In this document: positions 151 through 58,024 of the stretch, piece by piece
Position numbering within the stretch: the first letter of the stretch is position 1
Layout of the letters: every line of letters begins with the position of its first letter
Origin: Euglena gracilis
Lineage: Eukaryota
Direction: 5' to 3'
NCBI GenBank assembly: GCA_039621445.1
Contig: CP154954.1
Location: forward strand, 18,772,642-18,836,641
Length of the DNA stretch: 64,000 nt
Notes under the pieces: generated by a model
What the model was told of the DNA's origin: nothing
Databases searched by the model: none
What the model saw: only the letters and a program-made list of their open reading frames with translations
Made by a program: the position numbers and the translations under genes

Positions 151-3100
151 CTGTGGGGAGGAATGAGCCATCACCATCCTTGTGCAGAATTGTCCGTCTC
201 ACTGCCAGCTTTCCTCAATCCGGAGAAATACGCAATCCCAATTCTCGTCAGCCGCAATTCACCTTCATTGGGTCCCAAACCAACAAAGGGTGCCGGAGGG
301 TACACACACATTTGCATTGCAGCCTGACAGCAGCTTGCCATTGAAAGCACAAAGGCAGAAGCACGCCCCTGTAGCGGAGGAAACGATGGCTGGCATCCAT
401 GCTAAGACCAGGGGAGGGGGAGGGGGAGTTCCTTCCCAGCCACCCACCGGACCACCTCCCCCGAGGGGTTTCCTCTATTTCTGGCGCGAAGAGCCAAAAT
501 TTTTTGGTCTCTAAAATTGACCCATCAAAAGTTGACCCCAAAAGGTTGGTCCCATTTCCATTTGAGAGACCAAATAGTGAGAAAGAATGGTTTCCCATCA
601 CTTTATCGTCATCATTTGTTGGCATTTGCATTTTAAATGGATGCAATAACCCCCAGATATAACCCAGGGATGGGATCTGATCTGATTTGTCAGCTTAAGG
701 GGGGGGGGTAAAAGGTGGGGGGGAAGCAGGGCAAGGAATTGCTGGTCTGTAATCCAACCAATCATTCCATACAATTTGACAAAAATGAAAAGATCACCAA
801 AAAAAAAACAATGCACAATGGACTGAATGATTCACCTTTGATATCCTTCTCAGCTACCAGCAGCAAGCGACTATCCTTCACTTCGAACACCAGCAAACGG
901 CCTCGGGAAGGCTCAGACTCTTCGGGCAAAACGTATGCAGTGCCTGAATATGCAGAGGCACGTGTGTGTGCGCGCACGTGCATGCATGTGTGCGTGTGTG
1001 TGTGTGCGTGCGTGCGTGTGTGTGTGCGTGCATGCGTGCGTGCGTGCGTGCGTGCGCGCATGCACATGCACAGGGGAAAATGGCTGAAAGAAATGACCAT
1101 TTATTGCAAAAACGGGTCGACTTTGGGGGGAAACCGTGACTTGCCAATGGTTGCTTTGATCTTAGGGGTAATAAAATAGGGTTGAATATTGACAAAAAAA
1201 AGCAAAAAAGCACATATGAGAGGGTAAAAGCATGTGTACATGGTGGTGTCCCAAACATGCCTCCGACAAAACGGAGCAGAAAGTTCAGCAGCAGAAAACC
1301 CAGCAGCAGAAAATCCAGCAGACAATTAGGGGGAGTTTCTCAATTCACCCTACATGTCCATAGGATGGGTACCCCCCCCCCTAATTGTCAACCCCCCCCT
1401 CCCATTAAGGGGGGGGGTCATATAGAGGGGGGAGGGTCACGTTACCCATTTCTGGTTTCCGGCTGGGTCCAGTTGGCAGCCGGCTGCCGCAGAAAATCCA
1501 GCAGCAGAAAAGTGGGGTCAGCAGTTCTGCTACATCAGCCAGCCCCAATGGAGTGTGAGGATCTGACTGTCATTGAAGAAAATCCTCCTCATGCAGCAGC
1601 AGAGCCAAGGTCCCCAGCAACTCCTCTCCCTTCACTTACACACCCCAACACCGCAAACTGCCGAAAAGCCACTAGAGAACAGAAAGTTCAGGAAGGCAAT
1701 CTGCCATTGAAAAGCCAGACAGAACCACTATTCGCACCATTTTTGGACCTGAGCATATCGCTGAAAGGTACCCGGCGTCGGTAACACACCGACGACAATG
1801 TACTCCACATCGTCGCCGTCGAAGGTGGTGGTCAGGATGGAGACCCCGTTCTCGTTGGCGTCCAGCTGGTACGTATTGAGGCCTGCGCGGCAGAACAGGG
1901 GTGCGAACCCCATTGGCTCGGACAGCGGAGGTGTGTGGCTGCGGGGAAGCCTGCTGCGCTTCCCCCTTCGCTCAAACCCCTCTGAGGCACGATGGGGAGC
2001 CACACGCAACTGGCCACAAAAACGGACAACAGGTGCTGGACCAGGCACTGTTTTCAGCAATCTGAGAGGGAGGAGGGATGCCCAGGGCGGTGCTTAAGCA
2101 AATAAAAAAAAACTCTGCTGTCCCAGCACACTCAATGCAAAATCCACCGGAAAATGGGAAAATAATTTGGGCATTTTTCGGCGACAACAGGTCGACATCG
2201 GGAAAAAAGTGATTCCTGGTGTCCTTGGACCATCGCTCATCCACCCAAATCATCAAAAGATGTGTGTTTGAACTGTTTAATTTTGGACCCTGTTCAAGTC
2301 CCAGTCTGGTTCTTGGCCGGCCCTATGGCCCAAAGGGGGGGGGGGCGGTCCTTAAGAAAATTAAAAAAAAAACTTTCCTGTCCCTTAAGGACCGCCCTGG
2401 GGATGCCTTGTCCTGTGGAGTGTTCACACATCCCGGCAGGTTTTCCGGGGGAAATGGCTACATTGGTTCAGCGGTGCCTTCCATGCCGGGGAGGGACTGT
2501 ACGCTATGCCATGACCCCCTCCCCCACAAAGGCCGACTGGATCCCAAATTCTCATTCATGATTTCTCATGGTTTTCTGTCATTTTCCGTGCCTACAAAAA
2601 AATAATCACCCATTGGCCCCATTGTGCAATTTCCAACTCTTTCAACTGAAATGGCATAGGTTTATTATCTTGCACCCCATGGCAAGATGGCAATACTGGA
2701 TTTTTGTTATAAAAGGTTGCACCTAACACAAAAGCATACACACGTGTCAATTAAGATCTTTCAATTGAGATCCCACAACAGTTGTTCGTGTCATGTGTGT
2801 GTGTGTTTGTGTGTGTGCGATTTTTTCTAAGTGTGTTGCAACTCTGGCCTGGACATAATGTGTGCCAAGGCTCAGATGCGGCAGGGTGAAAAGTGCTCGG
2901 CGAAAAGTACACCTTTTCACAAGAAAGTTGGGCAAAAGTTTGGCCCTGATGCCAAAACGCCCAACAACATACGATTACACCACATAATTAACAAGAACAT
3001 GACGTGCAATTCACCACATCTCAACCCCACATTCCTCAAACACTCCAGGGCACTAACTTCAGCTTGCTCTTTTGTGTGTGTGTGTCCTTTTTCCTCCACA

Positions 3101-6100: not shown

Positions 6101-8052
6101 CGATGCCCGGAGAGCCCTTGGACCACCACGCCTTAAAAAGCCTTAAATGGCTTAAAATTTTGAAAAAAAATTGCCTTAAAAAATAATGCCTGCTGTATGG
6201 GAAGGCCTGATGGAGGGGGGGGGGTCGTTCATCACGGGGTGCTACTGATACCTTTCACACATGGAACGGTTCACCCCCTTTCGTTATCCTTGTGTGCAAT
6301 GCAATGGCCGCCATCCTGTCAGATTGGGGTGTACTTGGCAGAGAAGGCATGGTATTCAGCCTCGCCACCTTTGCTATTCCGCCAACTGCATTAGCGCCAA
6401 CGCCATAATCCTTGGAGTGGTGGCCATTCCTGAGCGAGATCCCTTCCCTCCCTTGGAACAGAAGTTGGGCAGGGTTGTGCTGGGGCTCAAGCACCAAAAG
6501 TCAAGCCAGGCATTTCAGCTGTTAGAGGCCGTTTAAAGCCATTTATTTTGTCTTTTTAGGGCGTTCAAGGCCCAGGCCATTTCTGGTCGTTTTGGGCCAT
6601 TTTGGGTCGTTTTGTGGACATTTCAGGGTGGTTTGGATCGTTTCAGGCAATTTTGGGCCATTTTAGGCTGTTTTGGGGTGCTTTAGCTAAGATGCCTGTG
6701 GTGAGGGTTAACCCACCTCAGGAAACCTCAGGAAACAGGTTGTGGCTGGCTGCACACCCAACCCCCTGAAGCCGGTCCCCTCCGGCTTGTGCGACGCCCC
6801 AGTCCACCACCCAACAGGGGGGGGGGGGTGCCGGAATTCCCGCAGAGCGTGGCGCAGAGGAGGGGGGGGGGGGGGCGGCACCGGCTGCTGAGGAGGGCGA
6901 ACGCCTGGGAGCTCTGATGGAAGACGATCTTGCGGGGCTGCTCCCCCAGCCAGGGGTCAAGATAGGGGGTGGGGGGGCACCCCCAACCCCACCCAAACAG
7001 TGGCGAGGTGTGGGTGACCAATTCTCAGCCCGGCATGAAGTGCCGGGCCGAAGGTTTTTGAGCCCCCAAACGACCAAACGTGCCAATTTCGGGACTTTTT
7101 GGGGCAAAAATTTGTCAAAAACGTAAAAAATTTTCGGCGAAAAGTGCTGGAAGGAAATATTTGGCCTTTGTGGGGGGTCCTGGGTATCCGGGTCGATCTG
7201 GGCCCCCCTTGGCAGGCGGGGGGTGGTCTACACCCCCCCTCTGGTCCAGGAGGGGGGGGGACACCCGACCTAAACCCCGAACACCATCCTTATGTCCTTA
7301 TGGCGAACCCTGCCCCCAGCGGCACGGTGCGGATGTGCAGCTTCTGGATGGCGTCGATGGTCCCTGTGACACAAGACAGAGCGCTGACAACAAGCTCTCT
7401 CTGACGACAAACTCGGGCGATGTCACCATAGTTTCACTTAGCGACGACCCCCAGGGGTGGGCACTTTCCCGCCCAAACCCACCCACACCCAACCCTCTCT
7501 TTCAAAAACCCCCCCCCCACACCCGCCTGGGGGGGGGGGGGGGTGCCCACCCACTCACCCACCCGAAACCCACCTGAAATCGGCGAAAACCCCTTGAAAT
7601 TTTTACAGCCAGGCCGACTGACCCATAGTGCACCCCATCCCATCCGTCCCCCGGGGGAGGGGTCCAGCAGCCAACCCACTCTTGAAAACCCCTCGGGGAG
7701 GGTCATGCAAGCGTTACATGAAACCATGGTGTCAACTTCATCGAGTGAATGCCACCTGGGCATCCCAGGATGAAAGGTGACAGAAGTGCACACCTACACC
7801 CCCCCAGATAGTGTCCCCGCCCTCCCCCCTCCTCGAGTAGAACCCCCCCAGTTTTTAACCGTGGACAAGAGAAGGGGAGAAAGTACCCCGAATAGAAGCC
7901 CCCGCTCCTCGGTTTTCAGCCAACGGTCCGAATACAAGCCCCGAGGGACTCCTATTCATAGGGGAGGTTACACGTACACAGAAACATGAAACATCCACAC
8001 ACGGCAAATACAATAAACACCACCCACACCCATCCGCGCGCGCGCGCGCGCG

Positions 8053-8106
<54 letters not shown>

Positions 8107-14100: not shown

Positions 14101-17100
14101 CCCCACAGTGGGGTCAGCTTGGGTCTCAAGATCCAATCCCGTCAAATTGCTCTCGAAAATGGCCATTTTCGGGCCGCCAAGCCAGGGGGGGGGGGGAATG
14201 CAACTTGGCCCTTCAAATTATGCAAAAAAATGCAAAAAAAACCGCAAAAAGATGCAGCTTGCATAAAACCCCTGAGAAAAGGCTGGAATACAACAGAGTT
14301 TTTGCCTAAAATCTGTAAAGATGTGAGAATGCCGGTGTGCCTGTCAATAATTCACAAAGAAGACCTCCTGGAAGACACTTCAAGCACTGAAGCTTTCAAA
14401 ATCAACATGAATCGTTCAGTCTAAGCAAATCGTCCCTCCAGGTCACCATTGAACATCAATAGCGGCGGCACGGCACGTTTCATTGCATAACGTGGAACGC
14501 AACTCGGTATCAACACCCCCAGCCAGGGCGGTCCTTAAGGAAATAAAAAAAAACACCAGCACACTCAGTGAAAAATACACAGGAAAATGGGCAAGAAATT
14601 TTGGCATTTACAGCGAGAACAGGTCGACATCAGGAAAAAAATTGGTTCCTGGCACCCTTGGACCATTGTCCATCCACCCAAATCATCAAAAACTGTGTTT
14701 TTCGACTGTTTAATTTTTGCCCCCCGTTCAAATCCCACTCTGGCCCTTGGTCGGCCCTTTGGCCGACCAAGCCGTTCGTTCAGCCTTGCTGGGTGCAGGG
14801 CGGTCCTTAAGGGACCGGAAAGCTTCTTTTTTATTTCCTTAAGGACCACCCCCCATTCATTCATTCGGCCAGGAATGAATGAATGGGGGGCGGTCCTTAA
14901 GGAAATGAAAAAAAGCTTTCCTGTCCTTTCCTGTCCCTTAAGGACCTCCCTGCACCCAGCAAGGCTGAACGAACATGGCGGCACACCCTTCTGCACAACA
15001 TTTGGATTCCACACATGAAGAAGTGTGTGCTTTCAACGTCAGCAGAGGTCTTTGAAATGACAAAAACAAGCTCGGAAAACATTCACTCCTCTGCAAAGCT
15101 CCCTTTTAATAGGGTGAAAGTATCAAAGACCCCAGGCAACTGCAGAGGGACCAGAGACAAAACATGACATGGCGACTACAAAAAAATTTATAGGGCAAAA
15201 TATTCTATGCAAAAAAATGCAAAAAAATGCAAATTTCGGAAAAACCTGATTATGCAAAAAAAATGCAAGTTATGCAAGTTGCATATTCACAGCACCACCC
15301 TCCCCAAAACCTGTTCCCTTGGGGTCATTGGGGCAGGTGCGGGGGAGGAGGCCCATACTTCTGCAGCACCAGCTGCTGCCCCTGTAGCTCCAGATAGAAC
15401 AGGGCGCCGCTGGTGCCCGCCAGCAGCAGCTGGCCCCCCAGGGCCAGGGGCTTTTTCAGGACCCGGGGGGAGGAGGGGGGGTCCGGACCCACCCACCCAC
15501 CCCCCCCCGGGGGGAGGCCCCCCCGGGGGGGGGGGGGGGGGCTGGGGGAGACCCACTTTTGGGGGTCGATTTTGGGTCTAAATAAAATTTTCGGCAAGAA
15601 GCACCAAAAAAAAAACCTGCCTCCAGAGTACCCACCCAACCCAACCCCCCACCCGTGGGGGCTTGGCCGGGACCCACCCACCCCCCCCCCCGGGTCACGA
15701 AACTTAAAAAATACGGATCCACCCCCTGGGAGGGGGGGTCAGGGGGCTCGGGGATCCACTTTGGGGGGCCAATTTTGGGGTCCAATTTTGATCGGCGCTT
15801 CGTGCCAAAAATCAAAAAACCTGTTTTCAGCAGAGTACCCACTTGCCCCAACCCCCCTCCCCCCTCCCCCGGGGGGCAGACCCACCCACCCACCCCCTCC
15901 CCAGGGTCACCAAACTGTAAAAAAAAAAAAAATCTCTGCCCAGGGCGTTGCAGCTCGCCAGGTTGATGGTGCACCCGCTTGGGCTGCTGGCCTGGGGGTT
16001 CGCTCCGGCCCAGGGCGGGAAGTGATTGGAATGGTTGCTCCGAAACACGAATGGGGACTCCAACTGCCAAATTATGGCCATTTTTTTCGACCGTTTTCCC
16101 TGTGGATTCTCATTGAGTGTGCTGGTTTGGAAGTTTTTTTTTGTTTTGCCTGAGGACCGCGGGACCCCCCCCCCGGGGGGTGGCAAAATGAAGCCTGGTG
16201 CTGGGGCAGGAATACTTTTCACATTTAGGGTCACCCTGCATTTAGCCAGAGGTGTGTGGGTCCAAGCACCCCAAATACGGGTCGGAAAAGAAAGTGAAGA
16301 CCGTGGCCCCTCCACCCAAAATGTCAGGGAATGGTTTTTTGATTTTCGACCCTGTTCGATGTCCGGAACGGCCGTTGCCGGCACGCCCCTGAGGCCCAAG
16401 GGCGGTCCTTGACAAAAAAAAGCATATCATCTTTTATGGACCCCCTGCTTGCACTATGGGGTGCCTGCCAGCAGCGTGCACACCCCTGCGGGGAGGGGGG
16501 GGGGCGGCGGATTTGGGTTCCCAGCCCCAGCCGACCCAGCCAATTTGAAAATGGCCATTTTCATGTCCCCGGCGCCGAAGGTGGGCGTGCTTTAGCACTG
16601 CCCACCCCAAAACCCAATCCCCAGGCTGAAAATGCCCTTCCCCCCTGCCCTGCCCATAGCACTCCCCATTCAACGTTCCATCAAATTTCACAGAAAAAAT
16701 GGCGAAAAATTCCAAATTTTTCGACGAGAATAGGTCAACATCACAACGTTTTTTTTAAAAAAACCACATTTCTCACCTTTTTTTGAATGTCTACCCCGTT
16801 CAAACTGAATTATAAAAAAAATCCTGTCCCTTGCGGACAAAGATTTCGGAAAAATTTTCGGAGAGGTGAAAAACTGAAATAAAAATAATAATAAAAAAAG
16901 CTCTCACATGGGGAAAAAAAACGCTTCCAACAAACCTTGAGGTGGTGGCCCTAGTCAGGCAAGTCAGGCAACTGTCAGATTGTTATCTGCAAAGAAAGGG
17001 AACCCCCGGTCCCATTCTTGGACCAAGCCTTTCGTTTGGCATGAGATCAGCCGGACACCCCGAGGGGTGACCTGAGTCAGAGGCATGGGCAGGGATGGTC

Positions 17101-20100: not shown

Positions 20101-23100
20101 ACTGGGCTTGAAAGCTCAGAGTCCATTGGGCTGTTGATGCCATTGGTGGGGGAGACAGGCAAAGACAGAGACCTCGATGGATTCCTCGTCCTCCATGCTG
20201 AGCACCTTGGTCTCGTTGATGAAGGAGAGCACCAGGCTTCTTTTTAAGACCCCCAGGGGAGGGGGGTCCCCCCTCCCACCCAGCCTGGTGCGGGACCCCC
20301 GGGGGGGACCCAAAAAATCGGGCTGTTTGCGAGCATTTCCCAAAAAAATTTCGGTGTTCGCGCGGAAACCCAAACCCTTGCCTCCGGCCCCGGACCCCCA
20401 ACCCCCCCCCGGGGGGGAGGTCTTCTGACTTAAAAACAAGCCTGGAGAGCACCAAATACTTCGCGTTCAGCACTGCCTCCCCCTCCGTCATGCTGTCTGG
20501 GGAGGGTTCCAGCAGGGACCACATTCCTGTGCAGGAGAGTTTTGGCAGGGAGAACTTTTAGCTTCCGACCTGCTCCACGCAAACCTGGTGGTTTTAAGCC
20601 GGGCTGAGAGCCCAGTTGGAGGCCAGGAAATGTGATCATGATCAAGTCGCTTCCCTGACCGCTTTGGTGGTGGCACACCAATTTGGGGGGAGGGCATTAT
20701 GAACAGCCCTGCCCCACCCCCCGCTCAGCCCTGGAAAAAATGGCTTGCTGGAAACACACTGCTGGTTGACCCCCCATCCTGGGGTCCTGCGGTGGTCCGT
20801 CACTGCTGTGGGGTGCAGCACGTAACCCTTCTGGCGGCCCTGGACCCCAGCAACCTCGCACCAGCAAACAACCACGGACCACCGCCTTGGAAGGTCAAGG
20901 AACCCCGGAGGGACCAGGCCACCGCCGGCGGGCGCGGCACACCCTTCACCCCCGTGAGCTGCAGCGAGGCCAGCTCGTTGATGCCGATGCCGTTGCGGAT
21001 GACGCGGAGGCTGCCGTCCTTGAACGCCCCGCTGCAGGTCACCACTTGCCCCTGCCGGGCATAGGCACAGGCCAGGGGGCATGGCGTCGGGAGCAGCAGT
21101 GGGGCTAGAGAAGCACTTCTCTGGTTCGGGTGTTCTTTAAGACCGGGGAGGGGGGAGGGGGGTCCCCATTGGCATTATCTATTTAAGGTCTAAAAACTTT
21201 TTTGGGCAAAAAGTGCCTGATGATGCCTTAAATGCCATAAAATGTTTAAAATTTTGGGTTGGCAGAACTTTCTCGAACCGAGCAAAAATGGAAGATGCAA
21301 AATATCGGCAAAAACATAGCCCAACTCTGGGGGGAAAAAATGATTTCTGGCATCGCTGGGACATTGGTCCAACCAAAAGTCAAAAAAACGTTGGTTTGAT
21401 TCCCAGGCAGCCCTTTGAACGCTGTGGAAAACAGCATCTAAAAAAGCCTCAAAAAATGCCTTAAACTGCCTCGAAATTTTGAAAAAAATACACCTGGTCC
21501 CCCACCCACCCAACAGAGGTAGGGGGTCCAGCGAACCCATCCACTTTGCTCCTTCCTCTCCCCCCCTCCCGGGGTCCGACAGTCCGAAACTTCCGTGCGC
21601 TGCCAAATCAGGCGTTGTTTGAGTCGTTGTTGGGAGGGGGGGGGTGTTCAGCCAGGCACCATTTGAGCCCCACCGTGTGGAGCGTGTGTTTTGGTCGTTC
21701 CCCTGCCACATATTGCGTGGTGTGTCCAACTTTCCTGTCGCTGTTTCACTGGTTGTTTTTTTTTAGAGACTGCCAGGTTCCAGGCCCTCCCCCGGGTGGG
21801 ATTGAACGAGGGGTGACCGAAAGAGGCCCATCCAGCACTGAAGGCGCAGGAGAATTCAGGTGAAAATGGCCAAACTGGATTGATTCTTGGTCATTTTGAC
21901 GCTCCTCCTAAGCATGGGGGGGGGGGTGCCTGCCGAGTCGCGGGCCAAAAAATGCCCAAAAATGGGTTTTCTGGGCTTCCGGAAGTGCCTTGGCCGACTG
22001 CCCAGGCACTTCTGGTTGTGTGCCCCCCTCCTGGGGGGGAGGAAGTCGGATGCCCAGGCAGGCACCCCCTTAGTTGCACTGAGGCTTCTTGTCTGTTAAT
22101 GGCCGGCGCTAACTTCGCTTCTGGCCCAGTTTGTGTGGTGAGGCAGGCACCCCCAGAGCATACAATTGCTTACCGACCCCCGGGGGGGGGAGGGGGGGGT
22201 CACTCCACTTTTTTAAAAACCAGTCAGTCACTCATTTTCAAAAAACCAGCCAGTCACTACCCCCCCCCCCGGGAGGGGGGGGTCGGCCACTCAGAAAAAC
22301 GGCCACTTTCCAGTCACTTTAGGCCATTTTAGGCCAAAAAAAATTTTCCGGCGCCTTCGGCGCCGGGGTCACTCAAGCCACTTTTGCCCACTCCTTGCCG
22401 ACCCCCCCCCGGGGGGGGAGGGGTCCGGGCCCAAAACCAGTCAGTCACTTTGAAAAAACCAGTCACCCACCCCCCGGGGGGGGGGGGGGTGGGACAGTGC
22501 TTAAGCAATTGTCTGCCCCGGAGGCAGGCACCACCCCCGGGGGTGGGGTCTGCCTCACGTTAAAATTGAGCCTGGCGCCCAAAGCCAAACAGAGGCTGTC
22601 TTATTTGCAGAACCTTCCACTGAAGCTGCGCTTTCAAACAGAACCCCTTTTGGAACTGATGGCGAACTGTCTGAATGCATCAGATGTCCTTTGATGCCCT
22701 AAAGAGCACAGACGATGCGACCAGGTGTCTTTTCGTGATCCAAAGGGGGATTCCATATGGGGGTCAGGCTGAATTTGACCAACCCTGGGGATGGGGATCT
22801 TGGGGTGTGAGTGGGCGGGTGGGTACTTTTCCCAAGGTTTGGCCATGTGCCCTACCCCCCCCCCCTAGAGGGTTGGATCTGGGTGCCGTGGAGGGCCTTC
22901 CGGGCGGGCATCCCCCACCCCCAGATTGGGGTCGGCCTTGCCCAACAATATCAGCCAGATAAGGCCAGCTTGGACAGGTCTGTCAACAACAACAAGGTTT
23001 TAAAAAAACCCATCTGACGAAAGTTAATGCAAAATCCACAGTTGGTTGCAAAAATGACCGTTTTCTGGCAAAGATGGGTCGACATCAGAAAAAAGCGGTG

Positions 23101-36600: not shown

Positions 36601-39600
36601 ACCCAAAACATCCAAAATGTGCTTTACAACTGATTGGCTACCCAGTACCCCCCCCCCGGGGGGTCCTTAAGCAGAAGCCTGATACTCCCCCTGACCCTGT
36701 TTTTAAAATCAAGTGCCAACCCTCCCCAAATCTGCCGCTGGTTCCCCTGCGCCACAGGCGCTTGTCAGCTTGCGAGCAGCGGAGCCGCTGTCTCTGACTT
36801 GCCGGGACCGGACGCGGGCTGGTGCGGGATCCACGGCGAATGTGAAGAGAATGGCGTTAAAGTTTCTTCCGCCGCCTTTGGCACGACGTCATCCCCCCCC
36901 CCAAGGAGGGGGAGGGGTTTGGCCAAAACCAGTCAGTCATTTTGGGGGGGAAAAAACAATTAGTCAGGCCTCCCCTGGGAGGGGTGGGGTTGGCCTGCGC
37001 GCCAAGGTGGAAATGAGGTTTTTAATAGGTTTTTGGCTGATTTTGTTCCAAAAATTCCCAAAAATGGCCAAAAACGGACATTTTTGGCCATTTTGGGGGT
37101 CCCAAAATTTTTTTTCCACTAGCTAGCCATGATAGCAGACCCCCCCCCCGGGGGGGGGGTCTGCTATAAATCCCAATAGCCAAATTTGGACTAGCTGCAG
37201 TCCAACCCCCGCCGGGGGGGGGGGGGTACTGCAATCCCTTAAGCAGAAGCCTGGGTAGGATTGGCCTGCCGAAAATTGGCCCTTTTTTTGGGGGACAAAG
37301 GTAGGGTGGAAGTTAGGTGACAAAGATTTAAAAAAATAACGCCGTCGACTGTGAAAGGTTGCCATGCATACGGCACGACATACCTCGTAGAGGTGCAAAG
37401 CAATCAAAGTGCCGGCTTCATTTATAAGCCCAATTCGAGGTATTTCAACTTTCCGCCCTGTGAGAAAGCAAACCAACTCCGGAGGTTAGTGCTGTTGTCC
37501 ACATTTGATGTTGGGTTAGGGTTAAGGTCAAGGGTGAGGTTTAAGGGTAGGGTTGGTGAACATGGGTGTTGCTCAATGACCCCCCCCTGTCTGCACTGTG
37601 GCTATTAGTTTGGTGCCTTTGAATGGCTAAGGGCAGGGAGCGCATGAAGCATCCTCGGACCCCGACACCCCGGACCTCATGATGCCATTGTCGTCCCCAA
37701 GTCTGGTGGAATCTCCCAATTGGCACGTTCGTTCCCCACATTTCAGTCAACTGTGATTTGTCCTTCAGTCTGCGTCTTGATGTGGATTTGGAGGACGACG
37801 ATTTGGACTTGTCTGAATCCGAAATGTGCTCACCCAACCGTCTGAAAAGGGGAGGTACAGGTTCATCAATTGCCCCATGGGCCTGGCGGGGCTGGGCTGC
37901 AGGGTCGGCCTGCTGCCGGGGGGGATGGGGCGCAGGAGCCCTGGGAGGACGACTTAGCCCCCGAGAATGTTGCCAACACAGAAGGGATTTTGTTATTTGA
38001 GGGGGAGGTGCGGGGGGGGGCGGACCCCCCCCCGCCTATGCCAAAGTGAGCCACAAAAATAACTTAGCCCCCGAGTATATTGCCAACACAGAAGAGATTT
38101 TGTTATTTGAGGCTCGGGTGGGGGTGGAGAGGGAGTTTTCTGCCCCTCGTAATGCAGAATGCTTGCATTTCTAAAAGATTTTCATGTAATCCCTGTTTCA
38201 TCATTGATTTTTTACCCCTCCGGACCCCCATCAAGGGCCCACCGACCCCCACCGACCAAAGATTTCCATCTGAGGGTGTTTATGTTGGTGTAAGGCACTT
38301 GTTTGGACCCATCCGGACCATTTCCAGGTGATTTGGGCCCGCCGCAGACCATTTTTATGACCACCGACCAGCCACCGACTAGTTTGCATAGGATTTTGTT
38401 CATCGGGGGGGGGGTTAAAAGTCGGCGGTTTTGACCCGTTAGTACATTAGAGTGGGTATTTCGCCAACTAGTCGGCCGACTACCCACTACCCCCTCCCAC
38501 CCCGTCTCGCCGACTGGCTACCGACCAATTAGTCGGCCGACTTATCGGCCGAATAATCGGCCGACTACCCACTAACCCCCCCCCCAGTCTACCGCCATGC
38601 GCCGCTCTTGTGGCCCAGAACCTGTTGGGGTGTTTTTGGGCCGGTTTTTTGTCAGAAAATTGATTTTTTCGAAAAATCTCGACAATGAAGCAAAATGAAA
38701 GAAAATTGCGTGGTGACCAAAAACGAAGCCCTTGAAATGCCCTATCCAACCACGCTTGACTTTCCCCCCAGCTCTTCGCCGAGCCTGAGGTACAGCTGTT
38801 TTTGGCCAATTTTTGGCCCATTTCTTCGGCCTGTTTTCAGTCAATAAAAATGGAATGAAATATTTGCCCAAAACCATGGGGGTGTACCCCCTGCAACCCC
38901 CCCCCCGCGACCCCCCCCCCGCGACCCGCACATGGAGGGTTTCCGCATCCTAGCAAGGGCCAAAAAAATGGCACCTTAGGAATTGTCACCCAAATTTGGA
39001 ATCAAAACTACCAAAAAATGTGTGATAAATTCCTAATTAGATCATTTTTTGGACCAAAAGTTCTAAAAATAGGTCATATGTGACGTTGTATGTGAGGTCA
39101 CATTGGTCACATATGACCCGGCCATAGTTGGCAGCTTGCTTTTTTTTTTGGACGCTATTGTTTTGTTTTTTTTCATTTTAACAATGTTTTTTTTTGAAAA
39201 AAAACAAAAAATGCCAACAAGGTTTTGTTTGAAAAATTTTTGAATGTATATTTTCAATCATTTTTGGCAAGTTTTGGGTCATTTTTGCCAAAAATTTCCT
39301 TACACAAAAAATGAAAAAAAAGTCATAAAGTTGCATTTTTTTTGCATTTTTGGATGTTTTTTTTGGCAATTTTTGAACTTAGTAGGATTTGAAGTATGCT
39401 TTTGGTATTTCACAACGAGTTTTTTTCAATGAAATTTTCCTTTTGTTTATTTTTGATGGTTTTTTTGGCGTTTTTTTTTCCAAAAAAAACACGTTGTTTT
39501 GGTTTTTTTAAAAAAAAACAAAAAAACACCAACTATGGACCCAGCAAAACTGCCACGTTCCCCCCGCGACCCTTGGACCCAAAAAAAAACCTGTTTTCCA

Positions 39601-42600
39601 GCCGAAAATGAGCATGTTACCCCCCCCCAGCCCCCCGTTTTTGCCCCGAAACCCACACATTTTGGGTCATTTCTGGTTTAAAAAACTCGAAAAAAATCGA
39701 AAAAATTCGCCCTAGACTTTGGAAAGGAATGCCAATTCTAGACCTACAATGGGAGGCTCAAGGGTCAAACAACAAAATGGGAATGGTTTCAAAGAGATAC
39801 ACCATGAATCCATGGGGACCAACTCGGGAGGACATTTTGTCAGGTCTGAACGTAGGGGACGTCATTCATCCCTTCTTCTGGCCTGGCGCTGACCCCGGAG
39901 TCCAGCTCTGAGGCTGAAAAATTTGGGCTGGCTGGAAAAAGGCTGCTGACCCCCCCCATAGGGCCCCAGGCTGGAGCTTGGCCCTACCCGGGGTCCAACC
40001 GGGTATCAAAAAATCGAAATCGCAAAAATGTCCAACAAAAACTGCCAACTATGCAAAAATTGATTTTTTGACCCCCAAAATGTCCTGGACAGCTTTTTTC
40101 CGACCCATTTTTGCCCCTTTTTGACCACCCTTTGTTCCCCTAACCACCCTTTTTGAAAACGAGAACTCCGTTACTGTTCAATCCGTTACTGCGCAGCTGC
40201 CTCTGGGAGGCTGGAAAAAAAAACTGTGCAATTGGGGTCCCCCAATTTGAGCCCCCCCCCCCCCTGCAGTTGAACTCCCTTGGCACGGGACGGGACCCCC
40301 CTAGAGAATCGTCAGCAACCCCCAGTCACCTCATGCTTCACCCCTTGTGCAAATCACTTACACCCTGATTTTTTTGGATGATCATTTTTTTTGCTCGTCT
40401 CGGGGGGAATGGCATCTTCTCTGTGCAAAGAAAGAGGGTAAGGCTCAATGTATTTCCATGTTCCACAATTTTTTGATGATCAATGCAAGGAAAGGTTCTC
40501 TTGCAAGGCTCAATGTACTTTTACGTTGGTGGGTTTTGACGATAAGCGTGTTACGCTTTTAAGTCGATAGTGGTTGTGCACCAGGGCGTTGATTTTGAAT
40601 TTGACCCCACCCCCGGGGGTGGGGGGGTCCAGCCAACCAGCCTTTTTCCAGTCCCCCCCATCAACGAGATTTGTGTGGCGTGGTCTGGGTGAAAATGTTT
40701 GCCTCCCCGAATCGGCATCATACGTAACTTCAGGCACTTTTGGGCAATTCTTTGTCAAACTTTTTTTGAAACAAAGCGCCGGAAGGAAAATTTTGACCAC
40801 TTTGAGGGGGGTACTAATTTCTTTCAGGGCGGTCCTTAATGAAAATTTTCCCATCCCGGAACATTCAATGAAAAATTCATAGGAAAAAAAGACGAAAAAT
40901 GGCCAGATTTTGGCAAATATGGGTCGACTTCGGGAATAAAATATGGGTCGACTTCGGGAATAAAAAGTGATATCTGGCATCCACAGACCATCGCCCATCC
41001 GCCCAAAAACGTCAAAAAATGCGTCTTTCGTCTTTTTGATTTTTGACCCCATTCGATCCCAGATCGGCCGTTGGCCGGCCCTTTGGCCTGAGGGCAGTCC
41101 ACAAGGGGCAATCCTTCAGGGAAAAAAAAACGTCCCGTCCCTTATGGACCGCCTTGCCTAATTTCCACCCCCCCCCTGTGTCAGGACCCCCCTTGGCAGG
41201 TGGGACGGGGGATGAGGGTCTGGACCCCACTCCAGTCCTGCTCCCCTTGTACGCCCTATCAACCGCTGTTCCTTTTCTGACCCACACCGAAAACAAACAA
41301 GCAAGAAATATCCCAGTGCTGCGCATGGGAAAGAGGCATTTCCCATCCCACATGGTTTCTTACATTTAGCGTCTCAAATGTTTGCCTACGGCTGGAAAAA
41401 ATACTTGCCCCAACCTGTCAAAATTGTTGTCTAGAGTCCTCAAAAAAAACTTGCTCAATTTTTGCACTGCGCCCCAAAAATATTTGCACTTGTTCCGAAA
41501 AATTTGCACTCTGCCATTTTATGTTTGCAGAATGAAAAAAAGCCTTGCACTGGACAATGGAAAAGGATCCACATCGAGAAATTTCGAAAGGCAAATGTGC
41601 AAAACACCCGATCCAAGCACAAAATTTTTCGGAACGGAGGCAACTATCCTCGGGACAAGGTGCAAACATCTTTGAGATAACAGGAAATGCAAAAATATGC
41701 GGTGTGAAGTGCGAAAAATTCAGGCGTTAAGTGAAAGCCAGACCCCGCCCCACCGCCCCTCAGTTAGTTGCACTAAGGCTTCTTGTCTGTTTATGGCCAG
41801 CACTGACTTCGTAGCTTAATTTGTGTGGTGAGTGGCCAGGGACCGCGCCCCCCTCCCCCTCGGGCCAGCCAGTCAGCATCTTTTTTTTCAGCCCAGCAGG
41901 CATCATTTTTAAGGCGCCTTGAAAACCCTGGAAAAAAATCATTCAGGCAAAATGAGCAAAAATGAGGATGGCCATTGCCATCATCATTGCCTTTGCAAAA
42001 TAGAACCTTGAAATATCCCAAAAGGCCGTTAAAAAAAAAGCAAAAAACCTTTACAAATGGCTTGAAAAAAAAATGTAAACTTTCGCCTTAAAAAAGCCTG
42101 AAGCCAGGCGGCGCACCCTCCCCCAAGGGGTGGGGATGAGCAGTGATTAAGTTATTGCGATTGCGGCCCAAAGCCAGGCAGGACGGAAGAATTTAGTGAA
42201 AAAAGTATTTTTCAAATGGCCAAAAATGGGCCATTTTCGAGGGCGCTTTGGTGTGTTCACGTCGAATTTTCGGCCAAAAAAATCCAACGCAGCGAGATTT
42301 GAGCTTTGTTGCCAACCCACTGGACCCCCACCCCTGAAAGTGCCAAACGGTAGACTGGGGGGGGGGGGTAGTGGGTTGTCGGCCGACTACCCAATTGGTC
42401 GGCCGACTAGTCGGCCGACTACCCATTCTAATGTACTAACGGGGGTGCCAAACGGTAGACTGGGGGGGGGGGGTAGTGGGTGGTCGGCCGACTAGTCGGC
42501 CGACCACCCAATTGGTCGGCCGACTAGGCCTGGTCGGCAGCTAGTCGGCGAGACAGGGGGGGGGGTAGTGGGTGGTCGGCCGACCAGTCGGCCGACCACC

Positions 42601-45600
42601 CACTCTAATGTAGTTACGGGCCAGTCTCGCCGACTTTTAAGCCCCCCCCCCTGAGAAAAAACTTTTGTCCAAATCACCCCAAAACCAGTCAAAACCCACC
42701 CAAATGGCTCCAGAACCCCCCAATCGGGGGTGAATATGCAAAAAACTGGGGGCAAAATGTCCATTTTGGGCCACTTTTGGCAAAAGAACACCTCTCCCCA
42801 TTGGGTTTTCAATATAAGTCAAAATTTGCACAAAAAGGACTTAGCCCTCCAAGTATATTGCCAACATAGAAGGGATTTTGTTATTTGAGGGGGGGGGTTC
42901 GGGGGGGGGGGGGGCGGAGCCCCCCCCCCCCCCCCCTGTGCCAAAATGAGCCACAAAAACGACTTAACCCCGGAGTATGTTGCCAACATAGAAGGGATTT
43001 TGTTATTTGAGGGGGTGGTGCGGGGGCGGAGCCCCCCCCCCCCGCCAATGCCAAAATGAGCCACAAAACGACTTAGCCCCCGAGTATGATGCCAACACAG
43101 AAGGGATTTTGTTATTTGAGGCTTGGATGGGGGTGGAGGGGGGAGTTTTCAGCCTGTCGTGATGCAGAATGCTTGCATTTCTAAAGGATTTTCATGTAAT
43201 CCCTGTTTCGTCATTGGTTTTTTACCCTCCGGACCCCATCAAGGGCCCACCGACCCCCCACCGACCAAAGATTTCCATCTGAGGGTGTTCCTGTTGGTGT
43301 AAGGCACTTATTTGGACCCATCCGGACCATTTCCGGGTGGTTTGGACCCGCCACAGACCATTTTTATGACCACCGACAAGCCACCGACCAGTTTGCATAC
43401 AATTTTCTTCATAAAAAGTCGGCGAGACTGGCCTGTAACTACATTAGAGTGGGTGGTCGGCCGACTAATCCGCCGACCACCCACTACCCCCCCCCCCCGT
43501 CTCGCCGACTAGCTGCCGACCAGGCCTAGTCGGCCGACCAGTTGGGTGGTTGGCCGACTAGTCGGCCGACCACCCAGGACCCCCCCCCCAGTCTACCGCC
43601 TAGAGCCACTAACGGGTCAAAACCGCCGACTTTTAAGCCCCCCCTGGAAAAAAACTTTTGTCCAAATCACCTCAACGCCAGTCAAAACCCACCCAAATGG
43701 CTCCAGAACCCCCCAGTCGGGGGTGAATATGCAAAAAAATTGCGGGAAAAATGTCCATTTTGGGCCACTTTTGGCAAAAGAACACCTCTCCCCATTGGGT
43801 TTTCAATATAAGTCAAAAATTGCACAAAAAGGACTTAGCCCTCCAAGTATATTGCCAACATAGAAGGGATTTTGTTATTTAAACCGGCGTTTGAGACGCC
43901 GGGTTCAGGACAGAACCGGCGTCCCCCCCCACGGGTTTTATGGACGCCGGTTCTGTCCTAAAACCCGGCGTTAAGAACGCCGGTTTTGTCCAAAACCCGG
44001 CGTCCGGTTTTCACTCCTAAAAATGTCACCAAAAGTGCCCAAAAGTGGCCCTAAGGTGCTGGTATGACTGTTTCAACCATGCAGGACAATGAATTTTGCC
44101 ATTTGGGGACCACTGGGGTGGATATCCAAATTTGGTGGAAATTGGCCCAGATTTGGAAATAGAGTACCGTGCGGCGTGGAAAGGTCCGATGAGCACCGCT
44201 GGTCGTCTGTTGAAAAGAGCTTTCGATCGAGGGGTAACTTGGTACCCTATCGTTGCACGCAGCCCAAGATACGCTCGCGATCGTCGGATCGGCCAGAATC
44301 TGAGTCGAAATTTGTGGTAATTTTCAGTGATTTTTGGTTTAAGATGCTGAATAAACCTTACAGAAACGTTTTTTCTCTTCGAATCGACCACCTGAGGGGT
44401 CCTAGGGGGAGTAATGGCACGAAGCCGGGACCCCTAACCCCCCCCCCCTACCCCCTAACCCCCCCCCCAACCCCTAACCCCCCCCTACCCCCTAACCCCC
44501 CCCCCTACCCCCCAAAGCCCCCCCCCCACCCCCTAACCACCCCCCTACACATATGGCACGAAGTGGGGAATGGGCAGGGGGTAGGGTGGGGTTGGGGGGG
44601 TTAGGGGGTGGGGGGGGGGTTTGGGGGGGGTTGGGGGGTAGGGGGGGGGTTAGGGGGTAGGGGGGGGTTAGGGGGTAGGGGGGGGGTTAGGGGGGGTGAG
44701 GGGGGGTTAGAGGGGGGGGGGATTTTTTGTCCAAAACCATGTTTTTTGGCCTCCTGGACCTGGAAACACCATTTTTGCGCCCCAAAAAAGTTAAAAATCG
44801 AAAAAAAATTTGTCCAAAACAATTCTTTTTTTGCCTAGTGGACCTGGAAAAACTGTTTTTTTTTACCCAAAATGAACGTTTTTTGACCCCCTGGCCCCGC
44901 TCTTTCCTCAAAAAAAATTTCCAAATTTGGGATTGTGTTATTTTGGTTCTGGGGGGGGGTTCGGGGGGGGGCAGAGCCCCCCCCGCCGTGCCGGACAGTT
45001 GCATACGACCCGCTCTTTCATCAAAAAATTCGGTGTTACTCTGCTTCTGGTGGGGTTGGGGGGTAGGGGGGGGTTAGGGGGTAGGGGGGGGGTTAGGGGT
45101 TAGGGGGGGGGTTAGGGGGTAGGGGGGGGGTTAGGGGGGGGTTAGGGGGGGGTTTGGGGGGAGGGGGGGTTAGGGGGGGGGTTAGGGGGGGGGGTTAGGG
45201 GGTAGGGGGGGGGTTAGGGGTCCCGGCTTCGTGCCATTACTCCCCCCCTACCCCCTAACCCCCCCCCCTACCCCCTAACCCCCCCCCCCTACCCCCCAAC
45301 CCCACCAGAAGCAGAGTAACACCGAATTTTTTGATGAAGGAGCGGGTCGTATGCAACTGTCCGGCACGGCGGGGGGGGGGGCTCCGCCCCCCCCCCCCAA
45401 ACCCCCCCCCAGAACCAGAATAACACAATCCCAAATTTGGAAATTTTTTTGAGGAAAGAGCGGGTCGTATGCAACTGTCCGGCACGGCGGGGGGGGGGGG
45501 GCTTCTCCCCCCCCCGAACCCCCCCTCCCAGAACCAAAATAACACAATCCCAAATTTGGAAAATTTTTTTGAGGAAAGAGCGGGGCCAGGGGGTCAAAAA

Positions 45601-48600
45601 ACGTTCATTTTGGGTAAAAAAAAAACAGTTTTTCCAGGTCCAGTAGGCAAAAAAAGAATGGTTTTGGACAAATCTTTTTCGATTTTTAACTTTTTTGGGG
45701 CGCAAAAATGGTGTTTCCAGGTCCAGGAGGCCAAAAAACATGGTTTTGGACAAAAAAATCCCCCCCCCCTCTAACCCCCCCCCACCCCCCCTAACCCCCC
45801 CCCTACCCCCTAACCAGGTTTTGAATAGTGCTGAGCTCTTAATAAGCGCGCACCCACCCCTTCATTGACCCCTCCATACATACCGGCCCACTCCATGGAG
45901 CTCTTTTGCCTGAAATCCATGGGTTTTGTGCCAGAAATGGGGGGGCCGGTGGGTCGCAAAACGCTCATTTTCGGCTCAAAAACAGTTTTTCCGGGTCTGG
46001 GAGGCCTAAAAACATCGTTTCGGGCAAAAAAAATTTTTTCGATTTTTTTCGCCTTTTTTGACCCGGTTTTGACCCAAAGTCAATGGGTCGGCGGCCCAAA
46101 ACGAGGCGCTGGCAGGTCGAAAAACGGTCGTTTTCGGCTCAAAAACAGTTTTTCCGGGTCCGGGAGGCCAAAAAACATCGTTTTGGGCAAAAAAAAAATT
46201 TTCGATTTTTTTCGACTTTTTTGACCCGGTTTTGACCCAAAGTCAATGGGTCGGCGGCAAGGTTGACGGCTTGTTTTTTTTTGAAACAAAAAAAACATGT
46301 TTTTTTTAAAAAAATATGTTTTTTTTAAAAAAAACAAAAAAAACGTCATGGAGGGTTTGGGGGAAAAATTTTTTGCAATGTTTTTTTTGGGAAAAAGTGC
46401 ATTTTTTATCTCTACAACATTCATTTTTTTCGGTTGAAAGCATGATTTTTCGCACCAGAAAACACAGATTTGGAAATACTTTCACACATTTGAAAAAAAA
46501 AAACTTCACAGGGGGTGTTCCCCCCATGACCCCCCTCCCCCAACCCGACCTAAGACCCGTTTCGGCCATTTTTTCTGAAAAACTTGGCCGGTGATGCCTA
46601 ATTTGACAAAATATTCCGGTAGATTTCCTAATTTTCCTATTTTTGGATTCCTATTTTGGAGCATAAAAAGGATTTTTTCCCAAAAATTCGTTTTCGGTGA
46701 TTTCTAATCTGGCCACCGAAAATGTGACCCCCCCTCGTGACCCCCCCCCCTGTGACCCCCCCCCGTGACCCCCCCCCTCGTGACCCGAACCACCCGCGAA
46801 AAATTTTCTTCAAAAAAATGGTCATTTCGCAAGGAAAAAGGTCAATTTTTGCTTTTTCAAAAAAAAACATGTTTTTTTTGTGTTTTTTTAAAAAAAACAT
46901 GTTTTTTTGTTTTTAAAAAAAAAACAAAAAAAACGTCAACCCTGGTCGGCGGCCCAAAACGGGGCGCTGGCGGGTCGAAAAACGCTCGTTTTCGGCTCAA
47001 AAACAGTTTTTCCGGGTCCGGCAGGCCAAAAAACATCGTTTCGGGCAAATTTTTTTTTGATTTTTTTCGACTTTTTTGGCCGAAAACGGCTAAATCGAAC
47101 AGTGGAAAAAGTGTACAAAATGGCCTAAAATGGCCTAAATTGGCCGAAAAACGCCCGTATCTCGGGCTACGCGGGGAGTTGTGGGGAAACCATAATCCCA
47201 GTACATAGAGCGTCCCAGGGGCTTCAATTTAGGTCTCTGGACATTTCCTTTGATTTTGCATCATTTTCGAGAAATTTTGAAAACATTGGTTTTTTGACCC
47301 CCCACCCCCCGAAAACGGCCAAGTCGAACAGTGGGAAAAGTGTACAAAACGGCCATCTGGGCCAAAAACGGCCGTATCTCGGGCTAGGCGGGGAGTTGCG
47401 GGGAAATCAAAATACCAGTAGATGGGGCGTTCCAAGGGCTTCAAATTAGGTCTCCGGACATTTCCTTTGATTTGGCTTCATTTTGGAGATATTTTGAAAT
47501 TTGACATTTTTTGGCCGAAATGGCAGAGTCCAAAGGGGGGGGGGCTTATCCAGGTGGGGCGGGTATCCTACCCAGTTTGGACCCCTTCGCGCGTGAATAA
47601 CTCGGGCCTGGCGGGGAGTTGGGGGTCAACTCCGGGTGATTCGGAAACTAGGAATCCAGTCGCTCGCGACTGAAAAAAAAAAATCCGGGAACGGGGCCGG
47701 GATCATGGTGATAATCCGTCGGTTCTCTGGTGGCCCCGACCCGGGGGCGGGGGGAGGGGGGGGGTCGAGGGGGGGGGTTCGCCGGTGGTATGCTTCGCTC
47801 TTACCCATAAAGGGATAAGAGCGCAGCGCCCCCCCCCTAACCCCCCCCCTACCCCCTAACCCCCCCCCCTACCCCCTAACCCCTCCCCTACCCCCTAACC
47901 CCCCCCCTGACCCCCCCCCTACCCATTCCCCACTTCGTGCCATATGTGCCTAGGGGGCACCACAGTTGTGAAATTAGGATTTCCCAGTGACAGAAAATAA
48001 GAGCTCCAGGCGGCATGGCTGAATTTGGTGGTGACCGCCAGTCGTCTGTTGAAAAGAGCTTTCGATTGAGGGGTGACTTTGTACCTAGACGATTGACACA
48101 GCCAGAAATACCCTCGCGATCGCCGGAATTTGGTGAAATGGAAAGTGGCGTGACATTGCAGATCAGTGGTCCGAGATTGGTCCTGGGAGTGTCCTTTGAC
48201 CGAAGGTTGGGGACGCCGGTTCTGTCCTGAACCCGGCGTCTCTAAAACGCCGCTTTAAACAAGGGGTGGCGGACGCCGGTTCTGTCCAAAACCCGGCGTC
48301 CGGAACGCCGGGTTTTGGACAGAACCGGCGTCCGCCACCCCTTGTTTGTAGTAGAGGGGGGGGGGTGCGGGGGGGGGGGCCCAGAGCCCCCCACCGCCTG
48401 TGCCAAAGTGAGCCACAAAAACGACTTAGCCCCCGAGTATGTTGCCAACATAGAAGGGATTTTGCTATTTGAGGGGGGGGGTGCGGGGGGCAGAGCCCCC
48501 CCCCGCCCAAAATGGAAAAATGTCCATTTTGGGCCACTTTTGGCAAAAGAACACCTCCCCATTGGGTTTTCAATATGAGTCAAAATTTCGCACAAAAAGG

Positions 48601-56477: not shown

Positions 56478-56549
56478 GGTCTTATAGTGTAGCGGTTAGC
56501 ACATGGGATTCTGATTCCCATAACCCCGGTTCGAATCCGGGTAGGACCT
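56478..56549 (+). tRNA. tRNA-Gln (anticodon CTG)
   Basis: 72-nt cloverleaf: acceptor stem GGTCTTA/TAGGACC, D arm GTGT/GCAC, anticodon arm TGGGA-TTCTGAT-TCCCA, T arm CCCGG-TTCGAAT-CCGGG. Confidence 0.95.
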
Positions 56550-56557: not shown

Positions 56558-57846
56558 GCACTTTTTTTGCCCCAACGGGGTATTCCTAATTGCATGAAAC
56601 AGCATCCGAATCACATCCCCTGGCCGCATCCGACCGGCCTGCCCACTCCAAACCATCTCTGCCTAACCCTTACTTCCCCTTCCCCTGAACCTATCTCCTA
56701 CCTTAACCTATCTCCTATCTTTGACACAATCAGATACACACTCGCTTAACTGCGCCTGCCCGAAAGAGCCACAGACCGTATGCTCTTATCCACGTGATAA
56801 TTCACCCTGTCTCTGGTGCCCTCACACCCCCCTCTCTTTTTCCCCTCCTCTACCTTTCACACTGGTCCTCTGGACCATCACACATAAACCTGCACTCCCA
56901 AACCCCCAACCTTGAGCTTTGCTCAAGCATCCGCTCCCTCACTCGTGCTTGGTATTTGTACATACTCCTAACCATCTAGCACTTCCCTTGAACGCGCCAC
57001 TTCTGTACATAGCCTTGCTCTCCTGAACTCGTCAAATCCAGTGAACTCCCCTAATAAGTGCACGAGTGCGCACTTAGCGCTTATTTGGGCACTGCACACT
57101 TTTTTCGGCAAAGCCAAAAATGCTCACTTTCCCCCAAGGTTGACGGCTTGTTTTTTTTTGAAACAAAAAAAAACATGTTTTTTTAAAAAAAAATATGTTT
57201 TTTCAAAAAAACAAAAAAATGTCATGGAGGGTTTGGGGGAAAATTTTTTGCAGTGTTTTTTTTTTGGAAAAAAGTTCATTTTTTATTTCTGCAGCATTCA
57301 TTTTTTGATTTTTTGGGGTTGAAAGCATGATTTTTTGCACCAGAAAACACAGATTTGGAAATATTTTCACACATAAAAAAACTTTAGAGGGGGTATTCCC
57401 CCTGTGACCCCCCCCCCGACCCGACCTGAAACCGTGTTTGGGCCGATTTCGAGACATTAAAAGTCTTAAATCTTCGCCCAAAACACGGTTTCAACCAAGA
57501 ACAGTGTTTTGGGCCAATAACATTCCCCATTGTATGGGTAGGCGGAGGTTTGGTGCTTGTGCTTATTTTCTATTTGAAAATGTCTCAGATTCAAAATTTC
57601 GAAGATTTGGAAAAAAAACTGAATCGGACAACCTTCTCCTGCAGATCAATTTTCAAATACTGTCACTGAGAACCAAAAGGAAAACGAAGGAATGCTGGGG
57701 TGCTGTGTGAGTGAATTGTGTTTAACAAGAAGGTTCCCAAAATCAAAACAGCGGAATAGATGAAAATATCGAACTTAAGAAATAAAGTTTTGGAGCAGCA
57801 AAATGAATTGTCAGCTTGGGTCATTGGCAGATGGCCGGGCCTGCTT

Positions 57847-58024
57847 GCCATACATCAACTCTGGCTTCGGCCGCTTATTCTGCATGTAGGTCATGAATGA
57901 GTGGAGGTCGAGCTGGCCTCTCTGCTGGGCGTCCACTGCCTCAAACATCCGGTCGATGTCCACATCATGGCTCGGGTAATTCAGGTAGCGGCACAGCCGC
58001 TGCAGCTCGGCCCGATCCAACTCA
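57847..58024 (-). CDS. EF-hand protein exon (ELDRAELQRLCRYL...FEAVDAQQRGQLDLHSFMTYMQ), 3' boundary approximate
   Basis: Completes the loop DTDGSGELDRAE and contains a second EF-hand-like loop. Confidence 0.8.

Follow-up and report, generated by a model that had tools for sequence, protein, structure and literature searches.

A nonconventional intron of the Euglena gracilis DDB1 gene and its transposon-like relative within a conventional intron of the same gene

In Euglena gracilis, the DDB1 gene raises the question of whether a nonconventional (NC) intron of euglenids can be traced to a transposable element that also exists elsewhere as an ordinary insertion. The gene lies on the minus strand of the 64,000-nucleotide stretch analysed here (contig CP154954.1 of assembly GCA_039621445.1, positions 18,772,642 to 18,836,641; hereafter the window), and two of its introns are at issue: intron 25, near 7 kb of the window, and intron 3, which harbors a related element at 49310-50577 that we call the sibling. 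A MITE-like (miniature inverted-repeat transposable element) origin of NC introns was proposed in 2014 (PMC3935182) and repeated in 2016, 2018, 2024 and 2025. That hypothesis has so far always been based on features inside the introns alone, i.e., inverted repeats and junction repeats. According to the 2014 paper, euglenid genomes had until then yielded no identified transposable element (PMC3935182), and a 2025 genetics paper still terms the origin of NC introns unclear (PMC12501133). The full-text literature, which leaves subscription journals and supplements mostly outside, yielded no named transposon family of euglenids whose copies include NC introns as well as non-intron insertions. The transposon-derived NC intron is an idea already known, and a family with both types of copy is direct evidence for this standing hypothesis. 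An exon-splitting member together with a member that keeps intact terminal inverted repeats (TIRs) and a target-site duplication (TSD) in non-coding DNA is the kind of evidence that had been missing.

The 54-residue translation of 9203-9364 (minus strand) shows a weak match to human DDB1 in PDB and also matches two full-length euglenid transcript-derived proteins in a large protein collection, P0001 and P0002. P0001 is the eukprot entry 'EG_transcript_838' with 1205 aa; its 'EG_' prefix presumably stands for Euglena gracilis. The gene model was obtained from tblastn and an exact-word chain of P0001 against the window, and P0001 residues 1-943 are exactly reproduced by 32 minus-strand exon segments extending from 53433 down to 88. 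For each intron, every donor/acceptor register that exactly reproduces P0001 was enumerated. All 31 exon junctions have at least one exact register and 25 of the 31 introns have a GT-AG register available, with none in introns 5, 13, 16, 17, 22 and 25. The orthologue P0002 is 88.8% identical to P0001 (1007/1134) and has zero indels at all six NC intron positions. An earlier note on this DNA had numbered the introns around 6943-7320 and 49310-50577 as 25 and 3, respectively, and the P0001-based model arrives at the same numbers. A search of metagenomes with P0001 residues 718-811 returned 597 pattern matches and two confirmed loci, both distant (41% and 39% identity) and neither euglenid-like; only one of them, L001, was used.

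Intron 25 has nine protein-valid registers, which all fall inside an 8-bp repeat and all yield the same mRNA. As none of the nine is GT-AG or GC-AG, intron 25 is a euglenid NC intron and not a spliceosomal one, and the GT/GC-AG sites that a spliceosomal introner takes from element and TSD are not found in it. Excision of exactly 370 nt from this site restores the P0001 peptide, the same stretch is indel-free in P0002, and the distant genomic relative L001 reads through the position uninterrupted (HIRSVPLGE). On these sequences, intron 25 is a true intron that is predicted to be absent from the mature mRNA. Its flanking 8-bp direct repeat, CCCCCAGC, is perfect and encloses the body of the element (Table 1). 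Compared with the family TIR, the right end agrees at 15 of 18 positions; the left end is more decayed, and between the two ends of the body 11 of 16 positions agree. The earlier note gave the intron as 6943-7320, which is the right place, but this span takes in both copies of CCCCCAGC, and the excised piece is 370 nt long, that is, the 362-bp body plus 8 nt.

The sibling is better preserved. Exact copies of its TIR, CAGGGTTTGATATAAGGA, occupy 49310-49327 and, in reverse complement, 50560-50577, so that the perfect 18-bp TIR and 8-bp TSD previously described for it hold at 18/18 and 8/8 positions. Likewise borne out is its location in conventional intron 3, whose borders read GTGTGT...CACAG and which is outside the P0001 coding sequence. 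Both copies thus have an 8/8 TSD, with a different 8-mer in each. Sequence of 836 bp and of about 45 bp in the sibling has no equivalent in intron 25. The 836-bp segment is bounded by a 12-bp direct repeat, CCCCTGGCAGGT, with copies at 49626-49637 and 50462-50473, and was either inserted into the sibling or lost on the way to intron 25. No TIR, tRNA or second copy in the window was found for this segment, and three open reading frames (ORFs) of 153-192 aa that overlap it in the sibling had no Pfam match.

The earlier note had itself named similarity restricted to homopolymer runs as what would refute the relation of the two copies. Runs of G and C are indeed frequent in both regions and account for many of the short, low-scoring reciprocal matches between them. 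However, blastn of 6943-7320 against 49310-50577 returns two colinear, same-strand high-scoring segment pairs: intron positions 24-274 against element positions 73-327 (262 columns, 77.1%, E 5.4e-53) and intron positions 273-354 against element positions 1166-1260 (95 columns, 72.6%, E 3.4e-11). Element positions 328-1165 (49637-50474) have no counterpart in intron 25. This gap agrees with the segment, 49638-50473, that the earlier note had proposed to take out. With 49638-50473 deleted, a global MAFFT alignment has 280 identical positions in 361 aligned columns. The Smith-Waterman local score is 233, compared with a mean of 25.6, a standard deviation of 3.3 and a maximum of 37 among 200 dinucleotide-preserving shuffles. 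Outside homopolymer runs, defined as four or more equal bases, 122 of 147 columns (83%) are identical. The blastn E value, the shuffles and this identity refute a chance resemblance of low-complexity, G/C-homopolymer-rich intron sequences, to which we give practically no weight. The colinearity of the intron 25 body with the sibling, as the earlier note had it, is seen alike in the blastn pairs, the Smith-Waterman score and the TIR-to-TIR alignment, and its claim that one family appears both as an exon-splitting intron and as a non-coding insertion agrees with the homology of the copies and the GT-AG borders of intron 3.

We call this family A, a putative short non-autonomous TIR DNA transposon with CAGGG...CCCTG termini and an 8-bp TSD. 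That the family both splits an exon as an intron and sits in non-coding DNA as an ordinary insertion is supported. Three hallmarks of MITEs, namely TIRs, a TSD of fixed length but varying sequence between copies, and a short, non-coding build, are found in family A. In the window the family comprises two full copies and four weak core-like fragments, and the two full copies hold the only two occurrences of the gapped motif pair AAACAGTGGCG...AAAATTTTCGGCG, for which 0 were expected (100 shuffles). A metagenome scan with the family-A gapped motif gave 0 matches. A protein-space search with the translated intron-25 frame, seeking spurious ORFs over other copies, gave 13 candidates, none at E <= 0.001, and Rfam and ARAGORN found nothing in either copy. 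The GC-rich hairpin in the family core lies at 7030-7052 and 49441-49463, and one stem pair is A-U in one copy and G-C in the other, an anecdote with only two sequences to compare.

How, then, did a family-A element come to be an intron? We consider it highly probable that intron 25 is an NC intron that began as the insertion of a family-A TIR transposon, and that a second copy inserted independently into intron 3. The gene model, the missing GT-AG borders, the TIR and TSD anatomy, the homology of the copies and the restored conserved peptide are observations; from them we infer that the transposon came first and the intron second. A family-A element would have inserted into a then-continuous DDB1 exon and duplicated 8 bp of its target, while a better-preserved second copy would have inserted independently into conventional intron 3. 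The pre-mRNA would carry the element, and the NC splicing system would read its paired CAG/CTG ends, which would be the TIR tips. With cuts placed 3 nt beyond CAG and 5 nt beyond CTG, the body would be lost together with the equivalent of one 8-nt TSD, and the pre-insertion reading frame would thereby be regained. As each copy has its own duplicated 8-mer, staggered DNA cleavage by a transposase is favored. A recently gained NC intron in the E. agilis gapC gene also bears 8-nt direct repeats (PMC4770533).

The duplicated 8-mers also bear on the reverse order of events, in which a circular NC-intron RNA was reverse-spliced, reverse-transcribed and recombined into the genome, making the intron-3 copy a transposed intron. 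Such a route would suit two copies that share a gene and an orientation, and full-length circular RNA is a reported product of NC introns (PMC11282704). However, an RNA-borne copy would retain 3 + 5 nt from the site it came from and lack a target duplication, whereas the sibling has its own CCCAGGGG, unlike CCCCCAGC. Five other intron-lodged elements likewise each have their own duplicated 8-mer, and the sibling has the 836 bp and about 45 bp absent from intron 25. We regard this reversal as highly improbable.

Double-strand-break repair offers another source of 8-nt repeats, through staggered-end fill-in, with a captured filler that happened to be a family-A repeat. Filler capture was proposed for the 8-nt repeat of the E. 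agilis gapC intron, and a high break-rejoining activity has been ascribed to Euglena (both PMC4770533). A random filler would not stop at TIR tips, however, and the piece in DDB1 runs exactly from the CAGGG tip to the CCCTG tip; moreover, the geometry of tip and 8-bp repeat recurs in nine elements of at least four families, with the repeat length fixed at 8. This alternative appears very unlikely compared with a transposon insertion at intron 25.

Nomura et al. (2025, PMC12501133) used knock-in genetics in E. gracilis to establish the NC splicing signature 5'-N3-CDG-/-CH'G-N5-6^R (^ marks an exon border). In that signature the 5' spacer allows no length but 3 nt, the 3' spacer is 5 nt and may be 6, and the downstream exon starts with a purine. 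In a 2024 review, CAG occupies +4 to +6 and CTG occupies -8 to -6, and 'TSD-like' repeats are noted as well (PMC11282704). On the gene strand intron 25 reads GCTGG^GGG-CAG...CTG-GCTGG^G and fits this code fully. Since the 8-nt repeat leaves the register ambiguous, the fit is to be read as compatibility and not as proof of the cut sites. The spacers of the code add up to 3 + 5 = 8, the length of the TSD, which suggests that splicing takes out the element along with a single copy of the TSD. An equality between the two spacers and the 8-bp duplication would account for the exact restoration of the reading frame and for the 'slidable' nature of most NC introns; this equation was not met in the NC intron literature consulted, much of it in excerpts. 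Intron 22 slides by 1 nt only and likewise loses CAG...CTG plus 3 + 5 nt. The minimum free energy fold of intron 25 brings its two ends together. End pairing is -16.8 kcal/mol for intron 25 and -43.8 kcal/mol for the sibling, compared with a mean of -10.6 for the 25 conventional introns; by class, it ranges from -30 to -44 kcal/mol in the intron-lodged copies and from -11.5 to -25.1 in the NC introns.

In the orientation of the DDB1 transcript, the sibling also satisfies the published code (CCCCT^GGG-CAG...CTG-CCCCT^G). 'Free', when said of the sibling, therefore refers to its location and not to a proven difference in behavior. It could be a nested NC intron that is excised within intron 3, or it could split an exon of an unannotated overlapping transcript; either would concern the status of the sibling only and is compatible with a transposon origin of intron 25. 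Besides the fit to the code, the sibling has the strongest end pairing of all the elements, and open frames of 83-105 codons run across its reconstructed empty site. Spanning ORFs of similar length are found at other intronic sites too, however, and such ORFs fail to separate exonic from intronic sites. Also against these readings, the sibling is flanked on the left by a dispersed repeat and on the right by A-rich low-complexity sequence. E. gracilis removes conventional introns before NC ones (PMC6221363), so that a nested copy should leave with the lariat and the sibling is probably discarded together with intron 3. Overall we think it unlikely that the sibling is a nested NC intron or splits an exon of another transcript.

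The dispersed repeat next to the sibling is about 650 bp long, with 83-89% identity between copies at 37949-38604, 42952-43609, 48591-49245 and 62467-63135, and contains arrays of the palindrome TCGGCCGA. It is present in intron 3 and upstream of DDB1, and one copy stops 65 bp before the sibling.

The architecture of intron 25 is not confined to family A. Perfect 8-bp duplications are found at three NC introns (13, 17 and 25), and six elements of the same build, the sibling included, are lodged in conventional introns, with TSDs of 8/8 in four and 7/8 in two (Table 1). These nine elements belong to at least four sequence families, and in the window only family A has both intron and non-exonic members; no window siblings of NC introns 13, 17 and 22 were found. 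The direct repeats at the borders measure 8, 8 and 11 nt in introns 25, 17 and 13, compared with 0 to 5 nt in the other 28 introns, and the 11 nt of intron 13 is made up of 8 plus a chance overlap with the element tips. Among CAG-ended TIR pairs, exact flanking repeats number five at length 8, none at 6, 7 and 10, and one each at 5 and 9. Fifty CAGG...CCTG pairs have TIRs that match at 12/16 or better, and the flanks agree at 7/8 or better in seven of them versus 0 in a shifted-flank control.

Table 1. Coordinates in the window of DDB1 intron 25, its sibling in intron 3 and other elements of like build (^ marks an exon border).
Feature	Position	Strand	Remarks
NC intron 25 of DDB1 (370 nt), register of published code	6946..7315	-	GCTGG^GGG CAG...CTG GCTGG^G
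Family-A body forming intron 25	6951..7312	+	362 bp, CAGGG...CCCTG termini
TSD copy CCCCCAGC of intron 25	6943..6950	.	gene strand: 5 nt intronic + 3 nt exon 26
Second TSD copy CCCCCAGC of intron 25	7313..7320	.	gene strand: 5 nt exon 25 + 3 nt intronic
Best-conserved family-A core in intron 25	6995..7148	+	81% identical to 49409-49560; hairpin GCCCGGC...GCCGGGC inside
Exon 25	7314..7364	-	P0001 residues 747-763, protein-exact
Exon 26	6881..6949	-	P0001 residues 762-784, protein-exact
Sibling family-A element (1268 bp)	49310..50577	+	same orientation as intron-25 copy; perfect 18-bp TIRs
TSD copy CCCAGGGG of sibling	49302..49309	.	exact 8-mer
Second TSD copy CCCAGGGG of sibling	50578..50585	.	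exact 8-mer
836-bp segment in sibling only, unique within window	49638..50473	+	bounded by 12-bp direct repeat CCCCTGGCAGGT
Conventional intron 3, host of sibling	37458..52075	-	14,618 nt, GTGTGT...TCTCACAG
NC intron 17 body	15445..15938	-	CAG...CTG, perfect 8-bp repeat (plus strand CCCAGGGC); same architecture, different family
NC intron 13 body	20233..20444	-	TIR CAGGCTT[G/C]TTTTTAAG 15/16; perfect 8-bp repeat (plus strand GAGAGCAC)
Family-B element in conventional intron 28	2083..2399	.	TIR CAGGGCGGTCCTTAAG, TSD GGGATGCC 8/8
Intron-lodged element, same build	9984-10478		TSD 7/8
Intron-lodged element, same build	14524-14952		TSD 7/8
Intron-lodged element, same build	17413-18582		TSD 8/8
Intron-lodged element, same build	24691-24999		TSD 8/8

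A second MITE family, family B (TIR CAGGGCGGTCCTTAAG, ~310-500 bp, 8-bp TSD), is abundant and scattered over the conventional introns of DDB1. Its copies are at 2083-2399, 9984-10478, 14524-14952 and 24691-24999, with fragments near 23902-24120, 31238-31551 and 40825-41156, and its interior resembles that of family A in A/T runs and in the 'TTTTCGGCG' style.

An 8-bp TSD and a CAGGG tip are reminiscent of hAT elements, and we take this tip to match Ac/Ds-type hAT termini. A TSD of 8 bp is what is expected of hAT elements and also falls within the 8-9 bp of Merlin elements. CCCAG/CTGGG is seen in four of the nine TSDs versus 1.45% of window 8-mers (binomial 5e-6, for a motif chosen post hoc) and may be a target preference that resembles the element's own tip. 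As a separate observation, intron 25 and the 14524-14952 element share the target CCCCCAGC. E. gracilis Merlin elements have a conserved DDE, near-perfect TIRs and 8-bp TSDs in both families (Lopes et al., 2021, PMC8101967). No ORF above 275 codons exists anywhere in the window, and Pfam searches with 10 ORFs, three of them in the sibling, returned 0 families at E <= 0.1. hAT-like elements and Merlin are the superfamilies to examine for an autonomous partner and perhaps a splicing factor.

Several observations weigh against the history proposed here for intron 25 and its sibling. The excision of intron 25 rests on two transcript-derived proteins, and its exact cut positions on the published code. 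Only two family-A copies were examined and they are ~77% identical (~23% diverged); with this divergence and one badly decayed TIR in intron 25, there is no sign of recent activity of the family. The window, searched for paralogous sites, contains no empty site, and no paralogous or orthologous one was found for either copy. The end pairing of intron 25, -16.8 kcal/mol, lies inside the range of the conventional introns (-2.9 to -23.3), and its whole-intron fold has z = -1.87, a stability also reached by 4 of 100 shuffles. In introns 13 and 22 the downstream exon starts with a pyrimidine versus the purine that the code prefers. NC introns 5 and 16 have neither 8-bp repeats nor a fit to the code, so not every DDB1 NC intron follows the model; these two may be older or compound. 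The superfamily assignment has its own difficulties. hAT elements prefer nTnnnnAn as target, a weak feature, and this preference is not seen here, with T at position 2 in one of nine TSDs and A at position 7 in two of nine. The terminal 5'-GG of Merlin (PMC8101967) is also missing, as all elements here begin with 5'-CAGG.

Introns 5 (35195-36292) and 16 (15989-17011) hold nested family B fragments, and intron 16 also contains a fragment that resembles an end of intron 13.

It is useful to place intron 25 among known systems. Intron 25 is itself a member of the euglenid NC introns (PMC3935182, PMC4770533, PMC12501133). It is like them in lacking GT-AG and in the positions of CAG (+4 to +6) and CTG (-8 to -6), and it shares their 'slidable' junction repeats, purine as first exon base and coexistence with conventional introns in the same gene; its ends may pair as theirs do. 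What is added here is a relative outside any exon with intact TIR and TSD. Introners are known from Micromonas and dinoflagellates, and the non-canonical introns of Amoebophrya combine TIRs with TSDs of 3-5 nt (Farhat et al., 2021, PMC7789003; PMC11282704). Introners are likewise DNA-transposon-like in TIR and TSD, are introns on arrival and obtain splice signals from element ends and duplication. Family A differs in its 8-bp TSD, in the Euglena CAG/CTG-spacer code versus GT-AG spliceosomal sites, and in that one intron member is seen and not a burst of near-identical introns. With hAT MITEs and the introns made by maize Ds (Giroux et al., 1994, cited in PMC3935182), family A shares the 8-bp TSD, short CAGGG TIRs and a short, non-coding build. 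The maize Ds-derived introns use cryptic spliceosomal sites, whereas the family-A intron would belong to a system that reads TIRs. E. gracilis Merlin shares the 8-bp TSD, but its TIR ends in 5'-GG, whereas the elements here have 5'-CA (PMC8101967).

A more general idea is that the NC splicing code is the RNA image of the DNA geometry of one transposon superfamily, in which CAG and CTG correspond to the tips of the TIRs and the TSD is split into the fixed spacers of 3 and 5 nt. We put this forward tentatively, as a possibility that falls somewhat short of an even chance. If true, any copy with CAGG tips and an 8-bp TSD that lands in a transcribed exon would be a ready-made and exactly excisable intron. 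The bulk of euglenid NC introns, a class to which 72% of E. agilis introns belong, would on this view be fossil insertions of one superfamily, and the intronic and intergenic copies would be the same objects without a job. In a bolder extension, the NC excision machinery may descend from, or co-opt, the end-recognition protein of the element. The origin of NC introns also becomes countable, since all copies of such families can be sorted by location.

Other features of the window include a tRNA-Gln(CTG) gene at 56478-56549 (+), ~3 kb upstream of the DDB1 start codon, which is the sole Rfam/ARAGORN match in the window. Long (CA/GT)n microsatellites lie in conventional introns 29 (~950-1100) and 24 (~7990-8075). 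An open frame at 57814-58143 (-), which reads ...DIDRMFEAVDAQQRGQLDLHSFMTYMQ..., looks like a putative EF-hand exon of a neighboring gene.

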